Virus record (IMG/VR): IMGVR_UViG_2675903578_000005
DNA from: a virus
Taxonomy: Duplodnaviria > Heunggongvirae > Uroviricota > Caudoviricetes
Reading direction: 5' to 3' (one strand)
DNA length: 4,298 bases
Of the stretch, positions 2,563 to 4,051 are shown in pieces (within the stretch, counting starts at the first letter, position 1; each line of letters opens with the position of its first letter). The notes under the pieces were generated by a model, which had not been told where the DNA came from, ran no database searches, and saw only the letters and a program-made list of their open reading frames with translations. A program made the translations under genes and the position numbers.

Positions 2563-2598
2563 TCGGGATTGGAACCCCGGATAGAGACCGCGACAGAC

Positions 2599-2623
2599 AC
2601 ACGCCGCGAGCGTGTTTTTTATT
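2599..2623 (+). terminator. Intrinsic terminator (tR'-like) ending a short late leader RNA of about 75 nt
   Basis: Stem ACACGC (2599-2604), loop CGCGA, stem GCGTGT (2610-2615), followed by TTTTTTATT (2615-2623). This is the classical GC-rich hairpin plus U-tract geometry, about 75 nt downstream of the predicted PR' start. Confidence 0.5.
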
Positions 2624-2748
2624 GTCGTATGCACGCGCACATCTGAATTATGGTGGGGCGCATGGGGGAGCTGAAAAGCTCGCCGGTCGGTTTCCCGGTA
2701 GTTCCAACCCTGTGCGTCTCACCACCCGATGATTGGAACCTGACGGTG

Positions 2749-2983: not shown

Positions 2984-3510
2984 ATGAATCGCACGTCTAT
3001 TGAAAAACTCCCGTCACTTACGCATAACCATCTTCCTGTCATGACAACAGAGCTGCTGGCTGATTTGTACGGAACAGAGCGCCAGCGTTTGACAAACAAT
3101 TTCAATCGAAACAAAGAACGGTTTATAGAAGGTAAACATTTTTTCCTGATAGAAGGTGATGCGTTACGAGAGTTGAAGAACGAAAACTCTTTAAGAGTTT
3201 CTGTGAAAATTGCCCGTAACGTTCGCTCCCTCATCCTCTGGACAGAACGTGGCGCAGCCCGTCACGCCAAAATGCTCGAAACCGATCAGGCGTGGGAAGT
3301 GTTCGAAAAACTGGAAGACTGTTATTTCAACCAGAAACAGCCACCAGCGGCACAAAACACATCTATCGAAAATGATGGATGCGCATTACTGAGCCACTTC
3401 GATAAACACGGTCAGGTTGAGTTCACGGAAAAGGTACCCGCCGATGCGATGGTATGTACTCTGGAACGGTTTAAATTTTATCTGGAGCAACACGGGTGGA
3501 TCGTTGCCCG
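2984..3510 (+). CDS. ORF6N-domain protein (Bro-N/KilA-N-like DNA-binding superfamily; antirepressor-like), 3'-partial because the C-terminus lies in N-run 3511..3760
   Basis: ATG at 2984 with AAAGGA (2971-2976) 7 nt upstream. N-terminal region LPVMTTELLADLYGTERQRLTNNFNRNKERFIEGKHFFLIEGD...VRSLILWTERGAARHAKMLETDQAWEVFEKL matches the ORF6N consensus pattern as I recall it. The track ORF 2786..3841 is rejected as an artefact of read-through over Ns into the tRNAs, and has no RBS at 2786. If the N-run preserves length, the gene must end before about 3741. Confidence 0.7.
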
Positions 3511-3760
3511 NNNNNNNNNNNNNNNNNNNNNNNNNNNNNNNNNNNNNNNNNNNNNNNNNNNNNNNNNNNNNNNNNNNNNNNNNNNNNNNNNNNNNNNNNN
3601 NNNNNNNNNNNNNNNNNNNNNNNNNNNNNNNNNNNNNNNNNNNNNNNNNNNNNNNNNNNNNNNNNNNNNNNNNNNNNNNNNNNNNNNNNNNNNNNNNNNN
3701 NNNNNNNNNNNNNNNNNNNNNNNNNNNNNNNNNNNNNNNNNNNNNNNNNNNNNNNNNNNN
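3511..3760. other. Run of 250 N (masked or unresolved sequence) covering the 3' end of the ORF6N gene, the intergenic region and the 5' end of tRNA-Ile2
   Basis: Directly visible run of n characters. Confidence 1.
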
Positions 3761-3817
3761 CAGAGCGAGCGACTCATAATCGCCAGGTCGCTGGTTCAAG
3801 TCCAGCAAGGGCCACCA
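3761..3817 (+). tRNA. tRNA-Ile2 (anticodon CAU, lysidine type), 3' portion only; the 5' 19 nt or so lie in the N-run (full gene about 3742..3817)
   Basis: Visible sequence ...GAGCGAGCGACTCATAATCGCCAGGTCGCTGGTTCAAGTCCAGCAAGGGCCACCA has anticodon loop CTCATAA (CAT at 3775-3777), T-stem GCTGG/CCAGC with loop TTCAAGT, acceptor 3' strand AAGGGCC, discriminator A and CCA. It is near-identical to E. coli ileX over this stretch (from memory) and unlike elongator tRNA-Met. Confidence 0.7.
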
Positions 3818-3818
3818 A

Positions 3819-3895
3819 CCACCACTAGCTCATCCGGATAGAGCATCAACCTTCTAAGTTGACGGTGCGAGGTTCGAGTCCTCGGTGGTGGGCCA
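3819..3895 (+). tRNA. tRNA-Arg (anticodon UCU, reads AGA/AGG)
   Basis: 77-nt cloverleaf: acceptor CCACCAC/GTGGTGG, D-stem GCTC/GAGC with 9-nt loop, anticodon stem TCAAC/GTTGA with loop CTTCTAA (anticodon TCT), T-stem CGAGG/CCTCG with loop TTCGAGT, discriminator G, encoded CCA. Begins 1 nt after the preceding tRNA. Confidence 0.85.
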
Positions 3896-3897
3896 GC

Positions 3898-3973
<76 letters not shown>

Positions 3974-3976
3974 TAT

Positions 3977-4051
<75 letters not shown>

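Follow-up and report, generated by a model that had tools for sequence, protein, structure and literature searches.

The repeated heptamer between Q and an ORF6N anti-repressor gene of a lambdoid prophage: very probably the recognition elements of a C4/IsrK-type RNA switch

The stretch of DNA considered here (4,298 nucleotides, nt, of the IMG/VR virus record IMGVR_UViG_2675903578_000005; hereafter the window) encodes a DnaB-type helicase, RusA and the Q antiterminator, followed downstream by an ORF6N-domain gene and a tRNA cluster. In the interval between Q and the ORF6N gene the heptamer TTGGAAC occurs twice in direct orientation (2569-2575 and 2733-2739) and once inverted, as GTTCCAA (2701-2707). 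These three copies had been reported in a preliminary description of the sequence and exact matching confirmed all of them, while no further copy of TTGGAAC or GTTCCAA was found anywhere in the window. The direct copies are part of an extended direct repeat, GATTGGAACC, at 2567-2576 and 2731-2740. The question raised by this locus is what such a repeat does beside two promoters. Our answer draws on RNA family membership, element positions, three-way covariation and gene identity. The heptamers are very probably the 'a' recognition elements of an RNA switch of the phage P1 C4 / Gifsy-1 IsrK type, placed between Q and the true late promoter. We take it to be a real repeat, functional in kind, that adds a new specificity to a type of RNA switch already described. 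All features of the window given below lie on the + strand.

When the sequence was scanned with every Rfam family, four matches in the interval between Q and the ORF6N gene exceeded the curated thresholds. These are c4-a1b1 (RF03163; 2531-2583, 50.1 bits, threshold 46.7), isrK (RF01394; 2544-2620, 77.5 bits, threshold 50, over the full model length 1-77), C4 antisense RNA (RF01695; 2646-2729, 71 bits, threshold 45) and sRNA-Xcc1 (RF02221; 2863-2946, 77.4 bits, threshold 53). The first heptamer lies within both the isrK and the c4-a1b1 matches, the inverted copy lies within C4 and the third copy begins 4 nt past the C4 end. The first promoter of the interval, named here promoter P1 as distinct from phage P1, was found by promoter scan at 2508-2537 (TTGACC, 18-nt spacer, TATATT; 10/12 matches). 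Its -10 region GGGGCTATATT is common to the cassettes of VT2-Sakai, Gifsy-1 and IMG/VR contigs, wherever in the phage genome they are placed. Judged from its position, this promoter would drive an IsrK-like leader small RNA (sRNA) and, by read-through, C4.

The leader sRNA (2544-2620) bears two elements, a1 and b1, and ends in a Rho-independent terminator (stem 2599-2615 plus a T run) that was found by the terminator scan. A 77-nt RNA with two 5' hairpins and a terminator, in the order Q, isrK-like RNA, ORF6N gene, is what characterizes IsrK. In the predicted fold a1, the first heptamer copy (2569-2575), occupies the 8-nt loop of a CGGG/CCCG hairpin, and b1 (GAGACCG, 2584-2590, read from the sequence) follows it; in homologs b1 is located about 62 nt before the C4 anchor. 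The C4-type antisense RNA (2646-2729) has a 17-bp closing stem, two hairpins and an 8-nt 3' junction, with a tRNA-like fold, a minimum free energy of -44.9 kcal/mol and a z-score of -5.0. The loop of its second hairpin contains b' (CGGTTTC, 2688-2694), at the position of b' (CACTAAC) in phage P1, and the inverted heptamer is a' (2701-2707), in the single-stranded junction before the closing-stem CCC, again the phage P1 position. By phage P1 geometry and by covariation the third copy is a2 (2733-2739), 4 nt after the C4 3' end and the first half of an mRNA operator. The predicted folds leave both a1 and a' unpaired. The a1:a' duplex was calculated at -8.8 kcal/mol, and b1:b' gives seven pairs, one of them G.U, with -10.4 kcal/mol. 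Unrestricted RNA duplex prediction of C4 against its flanks unfolded everything and was uninformative, and it was replaced by the positional comparison to phage P1. The possibility that the hairpins were tRNA T-arm fragments or att-site remnants was dropped, as the Rfam matches account for them.

The immI region of phages P1 and P7 contains the c4 antisense RNA with a1, b1, a2 and b2 upstream of icd-ant (Citron & Schuster 1990, as cited in PMC8198154), and the phage P1 record AF234172 annotates a1, b1, c4, a2 and b2. There a1 (TTGACAG) and b1 (GTTAGTGC) lie upstream of c4, b' (CACTAAC) is in the loop of c4 hairpin 2, a' (CTGTCAA) stands directly before the closing-stem CCC, a2 (TTGACAG) follows 4 nt after c4 and b2 (GTTAGTGA) is situated over the icd Shine-Dalgarno (SD) sequence. 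The window has the same order of promoter, a1, b1 and C4, with b' in the hairpin-2 loop and a' in the 3' junction, and then a2 4 nt on. Moreover, the elements are 7 nt long in both and the module is upstream of an anti-repressor gene in both. Because the geometry of the window equals that annotated for immI, the three heptamers can be assigned as the predicted a1, a' and a2 of a C4/IsrK-type RNA switch. There are also clear differences from immI. The heptamer is TTGGAAC instead of TTGACAG, there is no icd and the anti-repressor is an ORF6N protein and not Ant1/2. In the window a Rho-independent terminator stands between a1/b1 and C4, which would yield a separate short RNA, a C1 operator is absent, and the module belongs to a lambdoid prophage in which it is placed between Q and pR'. 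Finally, the b2 element and the occluded ribosome binding site (RBS) of immI are absent from the window.

A second homolog offers genetic data. In Gifsy-1 the IsrK mutations G28A and G31A and the 'orf45' mutations C162U and C159U de-repress anrP translation, and in the matched double mutants (G28A/C162U and G31A/C159U) the RNA regains its wild-type conformation and the elevated basal translation falls again (Hershko-Shalev et al. 2016, PMC4825925). Numbered from the isrK start, G28 and G31 fall in a1 (T26-T32 = TTGGCGT) and C159 and C162 in a' (A158-A164 = ACGCCAA), so the pairs G28:C162 and G31:C159 of the helix named b-I are a1:a' pairs. Since these positions map into a1 and a', the a1:a' pairing has been genetically tested in a homolog, although in other terms. 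The order of the two loci is likewise the same: Q, IsrK promoter, sRNA and terminator, a C4-like RNA (the orf45/STnc1160 region) and an ORF6N anti-repressor gene. In contrast to the window, Gifsy-1 has the heptamer TTGGCGT with ATCACCG as b, and it keeps a complete a2-b2-SD operator, whereas in the window a second cassette, that of sRNA-Xcc1, is interposed. The Q families differ too, being 82-like with 225 amino acids (aa) in Gifsy-1 and of the PF06530 type with 128 aa in the window. The orf45 AUG of Gifsy-1 (A107) is located within the 5' strand of the C4 stem, and from the same AUG the window has an open reading frame of 76 codons (2650-2880) that crosses a2, the second promoter and the second terminator. 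In Gifsy-1 the end of orf45 at the anrP start permits translational coupling; coupling of this type is impossible in the window because the frame from 2650 ends at 2880, 100 nt before the ORF6N start (2984).

The authors of the Gifsy-1 study liken their system to the CI RNA of satellite phage P4 (PMC4825925). Like the P4 CI RNA with seqA and seqC, the C4 of the window would be a processed tRNA-like RNA from an untranslated leader with complementary targets on both sides; no P4 CI model matched in the window. The outcome in P4 is a different one, as there the transcription of replication genes is terminated prematurely and no anti-repressor is controlled at the level of translation.

A pattern scan of viral contigs gave 120 loci, and in 67 of them the C4 3' closing strand was found after the match. 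The alignment made from these, with Escherichia coli relatives and VT2-Sakai added, comprised 54 distinct cassettes. The heptamer itself is not conserved among them. At least 15 different triads were observed, and all three copies change together. The variants include TTGGCGT, TTGGAAC, TTGGTCT, TTTGCAC, TTAGGAAC, TTGACGA, CTGCAAA, TTGATAC, TTAGAAC, GTAGGAA, TTGAGAC, TTGACCT, TTTCCAC and TTCTCAA, with TTGACAG in phage P1. Across the 54 cassettes a1 and a' are paired in 98.1% of cells, and six of the seven pairs have changed on both sides; the covariation score was 0.550 against 0.146 in shuffles, a value reached by none of 500. The result for a' and a2 is much the same (97.1% of cells paired, 6/7 pairs changed on both sides, 0.536 against 0.152, 0/500). 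In slid controls for both pairings 44% of cells at most were paired. The preliminary description had proposed conservation of the motif in related phages as the test, and its absence as a refutation, but this is misleading because what is conserved is the three-way complementarity, and the sequence varies (TTGGCGT, TTGGTCT and others).

The b elements behave in a similar way. A match on both the upstream and the downstream side was found in 45/64 cassettes, with 22 variants, and the b triads covary. As for the structured RNAs, the C4 stems are paired in 98-99.9% of cells. The closing stem, at 99.9%, shows compensatory changes and contains many G.U pairs, which are only possible in the + strand transcript. 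C4 hairpin 1 and both leader hairpins also present compensatory changes in the 54 cassettes. The bias of G.U over A.C in b1/b2 duplexes with a single mismatch, which would distinguish RNA pairing from a DNA site, could be followed in too few cases, and the G.U pairs of the C4 stems were used in its place.

Two cassettes of this collection, L260 (C4 anchor 8056, +) and L094, are recombinants in which a2 is of another specificity than a1 and a'. In L260 a GGAAC-type a1 and a' are combined with an a2 of the GGCGT type; in L094 the combination is GGCGT with GGAAC. The crossovers seem to have taken place within the conserved 3' strand of the C4 stem. A separate observation concerns the loop of the first leader hairpin, GCAAAATC (2553-2558), which is almost invariant among otherwise diverged cassettes, with CAAATT in its place in phage P1. 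The loop resembles a -10-like hexamer at about +10 to +15; it may serve to bind a protein or Hfq, or as a sigma-dependent pause element.

C4 RNAs are cut from a longer precursor by ribonuclease P and other nucleases. In the IsrK family the middle part of the RNA pairs with the read-through RNA (helix b-I), the short form trans-activates translation and Hfq is bound. By analogy, transcription from promoter P1 would give the 77-nt IsrK-like RNA, ending at its own terminator, with a1 (UUGGAAC) exposed in a hairpin loop and b1 just 3' of it. Read-through transcripts would in addition carry the tRNA-like C4, with b' in a hairpin loop and a' (GUUCCAA) in the 3' junction. Here a' and b' would pair with a1 and b1 of the leader, in cis within a read-through RNA or in trans when the short RNA is free. 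In canonical cassettes a' and b' would also pair with a2 and b2, upstream of and over the anti-repressor RBS, and prevent its translation, a block that the short leader RNA would relieve by competing for the a'/b' surfaces. The five variable nt of the heptamer would set the specificity, as in P1/P7 hetero-immunity. That the pairing affects translation is taken from the work on Gifsy-1 and that it represses ant from the work on phage P1; its activity in this prophage, and any role of a2, we infer. Of the interpretations offered in the preliminary description, that of paired RNA elements at 2701-2707 and 2733-2739 was thus right in principle, since the a' and a2 of a C4-type antisense system lie there, but it missed both the pairing of the first copy with the same element and the known nature of the system.

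The downstream half of the operator is different in the window. In E. coli prophages with the same Q and in many viral contigs the canonical cassette continues from a2 through CTGACGGTGGTGA to b2, the SD sequence and the ORF6N start. The window matches this cassette through CTGACGGTG (2748) and diverges at 2748/2749. In place of b2 and the SD sequence there is a second promoter (P2), a leader, a terminator and sRNA-Xcc1, and only then the ORF6N gene. No b2 site of the form GARACC(G) was found between 2740 and 2984, including the place, some 34-40 nt past C4 and immediately 5' of an SD sequence, where homologs have b2. The match of b' to a b2 over the RBS that is typical of C4 systems is accordingly not found in the window. 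The sole other GAAACCG (3278-3284) is a perfect complement of b', but it lies inside the ORF6N coding sequence, in conserved LETD codons and with no a-type site near, and is probably coincidental. The exact a2/P2 junction had no match in the species-representative genome collection. The tandem layout of C4 followed by Xcc1 was found in five distinct versions.

Several points weigh against reading the heptamers as a working switch. RNA expression, processing and binding at this locus are predicted from the sequence. A co-evolving DNA-binding protein would equally yield a concerted change of the three copies. The phage P1 model, in which processed C4 blocks the RBS, and the Gifsy-1 model, with a cis helix and a trans-activating short RNA, differ in detail, and either may apply here. 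With b2 and its RBS absent, the canonical output of the switch would be unable to act on the adjacent gene. In one of the tandem relatives, L260, the a2 is of the GGCGT type beside a GGAAC-type a1/a', and a2 may be a relic in the tandem architecture.

This last possibility is the most serious of the alternatives. It proposes that only a1 and a' work here and that a2 (2733-2739) was left behind, without a regulatory role, by the recombination that brought the Xcc1 cassette just downstream. We regard it as quite possible, if somewhat short of an even chance. It would account for the loss of b2 and the SD sequence and for the end of the canonical sequence at 2748/2749, and it is in line with the a2 of L260 that does not match its own a'; the other mismatched recombinant, L094, is of the canonical type. 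However, a2 fits a' in four of the five tandem versions, and E. coli EC12 keeps GATTGGAAC despite diverged a2 flanks. A contact of C4 with a2 could, moreover, still affect C4 3' processing or the stability of the read-through RNA.

The preliminary description preferred to see the heptamers as iterated double-stranded DNA sites for the ORF6N protein, Q or a host factor. We consider this very improbable. A heptamer present in two direct copies and one inverted copy close to two promoters is indeed what such sites may look like, and their concerted change between phages is formally compatible with a co-evolving protein specificity. Nevertheless the copies are located inside transcribed, structured RNAs that score above the Rfam curated thresholds, in loops and junctions, and the C4 stems are kept through G.U pairs that are specific to the + strand transcript. 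Q is 95% identical across loci with different heptamers, and the ORF6N N-terminal domains do not group by heptamer type. The same geometry corresponds to annotated RNA targets in phage P1 and was tested by compensatory RNA mutations in Gifsy-1. The Q-binding element of the Q21 type consists of two adjacent 8-bp direct-repeat subsites beside a sigma-dependent pause element. The window has 164 bp between its two direct copies and an inverted third one, and on this geometry the heptamers were rejected as a Q-binding element.

Pure chance, the weakest alternative, can be given practically no credit, since the three positions covary over 54 cassettes and coincide with the phage P1 and Gifsy-1 elements. 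Taken by itself, the repeat is only marginally significant. The claim that three copies are unlikely by chance holds for a heptamer named in advance, for which 0.69 copies are expected and three or more were found in 9/200 shuffles. It does not hold for heptamers in general, as some 7-mer occurred three times within 175 bp in 576 of 1000 dinucleotide shuffles of the window (58%), and a 10-mer direct repeat within 200 bp in 491 of 1000 (49%). The heptamer-triple scan found four other triples of this kind within the window itself. Only the composite pattern, a 10-mer occurring twice with its inverted 7-mer core between, is rarer (56/3000 shuffles, 1.9%). The reality of the repeat therefore rests on homology and covariation, the statistics of the repeat alone being weak, and it is by the covariation counts that chance is effectively refuted.

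With the three copies read as a1, a' and a2, the interposed sequence can be considered in its own right. Promoter P2 (2749-2777; TTGACA, 17-nt spacer, TACATT), given by the promoter scan, is outside the C4 cassette; the 'second promoter' that had been associated with the heptamers belongs to a separate sRNA-Xcc1 cassette. Both of its hexamers are kept in E. coli EC12 with a different spacer, and the contig L009 has TTGACA-17-TATAGT at the same place. It is followed by a leader (2789-2840), detected by the heptamer-triple scan, with CTCAAAA at 2789-2795 and TCGAAAG at 2800-2806, and containing the terminator t2 (hairpin 2813-2833, with a run of seven T to 2840). The t2 stem shows a compensatory change in EC12 (CCACA/TGTGG to CCGC/GCGG), and the same leader precedes an ORF6N gene in the Shiga toxin (Stx) phage P13374. 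The sRNA-Xcc1 match (RF02221, 2863-2946) has CTTTCGA (2913-2919) in the loop of hairpin 2 and TTTTGAG (2923-2929) in the 3' junction. Downstream, at 2944-2976, the heptamer-triple scan and the homologs indicate an operator with CTCAAAA at 2944-2950 and TCGAAAG at 2968-2974, the latter overlapping the ORF6N SD sequence AGGA (2973-2976). In homologs the matching operator element abuts GGAC or GGAGG, with the ATG about 10 nt later.

These elements also change together. The triad is TCAGTAG/CTACTGA/TCAGTAG in EC12 and CAAGTAG/CTACTTG/CAAGTAG in P13374, and an exact triple match of at least 7 nt was found in 37/49 viral Xcc1 cassettes, with 22 specificities, compared with 32/9185 in the permuted control. 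To judge by its layout, the Xcc1 cassette is of the same design as the C4 cassette, a putative C4-like, cis-encoded antisense arrangement. The sRNA-Xcc1 family (RF02221; Chen et al. 2011) is treated in the searchable literature as a trans-acting, virulence-linked sRNA, and a paper on APSE phages gives its position upstream of an ORF6N gene. The RNA of the window agrees with this family in its score of 77.4 bits and, as in the APSE phages, in its place upstream of an ORF6N gene. Unlike the published view, here it is flanked by covarying complements of its hairpin-2 loop, the downstream one over the SD sequence. No description of such flanking target sites was found in the searchable literature, which does not extend to subscription papers.

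Control of the ORF6N gene by C4 itself is not inferable, because a second promoter, a terminator and an RNA cassette lie between them. Most likely the translation of the anti-repressor in the window would be gated by the Xcc1-type RNA, and C4 and IsrK most likely still form a putative sRNA and anti-sRNA pair. A phage contig, L031, has an operator of a2 TTGGAAC, b2 GAAACCG and SD that is a perfect match to the C4 of the window, and for this reason a role in trans is conceivable; the C4/IsrK pair of the window possibly acts on phages with a TTGGAAC/GAAACCG operator. One may therefore picture two stacked RNA locks, the C4/IsrK pair being mainly a specificity module in trans (cross-immunity, e.g. 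towards L031) and Xcc1 occluding the ORF6N SD sequence as a cis immunity antisense RNA with an upstream decoy and a downstream operator. We would give this arrangement an even chance of being correct.

Of the genes on either side, Q (2117-2503; Pfam PF06530, 176 bits) shares about 80% identity with the Q proteins of phage 434 and the Stx phages. The ORF6N-domain anti-repressor gene (2984-3510; Pfam ORF6N, 74.6 bits) continues into a run of masked letters (N). The protein has 187 aa in a relative, L032, whose sequence agrees with each of the three unmasked segments of the window at 100% identity. It matches PHROG anti-repressor families (phrog_2379, E = 4e-85) and shares 49% identity with AnrP/STM2616 of Gifsy-1 along its whole length. 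On these similarities, the ORF6N anti-repressor would be the protein output of the module.

The region after Q had been labelled as a late leader with a late terminator. We examined promoter P1 and its terminator as a Q-dependent pR'/tR' and rejected this as unlikely. The same promoter, leader and terminator occur in VT2-Sakai after ninE, about 2.5 kb upstream of Q, and after the ORF6N gene L032 has a sequence closely similar to the late promoter, qut site and terminator that are annotated in VT2-Sakai (933W-type), followed by tRNA-Met; both facts argue that promoter P1 and its terminator are not pR' and tR'. The pR'/tR' stretch of L032 (668-913, minus strand) corresponds to the N mask 3511-3760 of the window, where the C-terminus of the ORF6N protein is also situated. 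The real pR' and tR' are thus probably hidden under the mask downstream of the ORF6N gene. The leader is an IsrK-like sRNA with its own terminator: on this comparison the terminator at 2599-2620 would be that of IsrK and not tR', and an RNA-switch and anti-repressor module would stand between Q and pR'.

Some further observations were made in these surroundings. VT2-Sakai (L003 3001-3281) and many Stx1 and Stx2 phages contain a complete C4 cassette after ninE, with TTGGCGT as a and GAAACC as b2 beside the SD sequence. The VT2-Sakai-type cassette controls H0107, an ORF6N-type gene, and is unannotated in those records. In the window the N runs 1203-1393 and 3511-3760 measure 191 and 250 nt, and their equivalents in L032 248 and 246 nt; either the masks are not length-preserving or the source differs from L032 by insertions or deletions. 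The tRNA cluster (3761-4051) consists of the 3' part of tRNA-Met(CAT) at the mask edge, tRNA-Arg(TCT), tRNA-Thr(TGT) and tRNA-Gly(TCC), and the start of the tRNA-Met(CAT) gene is in the stretch of L032 that matches the mask. In Stx phages tRNA genes occupy a similar place, behind pR'.

In annotating this prophage, the labels pR', short leader RNA and tR' should not be given to the region that follows Q. The heptamers are better regarded as the specificity determinants of an RNA switch that would gate the anti-repressor, and hence prophage induction, and should not be pursued as protein sites. The parts worth following are the tandem arrangement and the C4-like nature of sRNA-Xcc1, since the logic of its cassette gives a concrete cis-target for a family that has been discussed only by its trans targets and virulence. 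The a and b specificities, at least 15 of the former and about 20 of the latter, assort widely in lambdoid, Stx and other phages, and this fits a role in hetero-immunity between co-resident and incoming phages.

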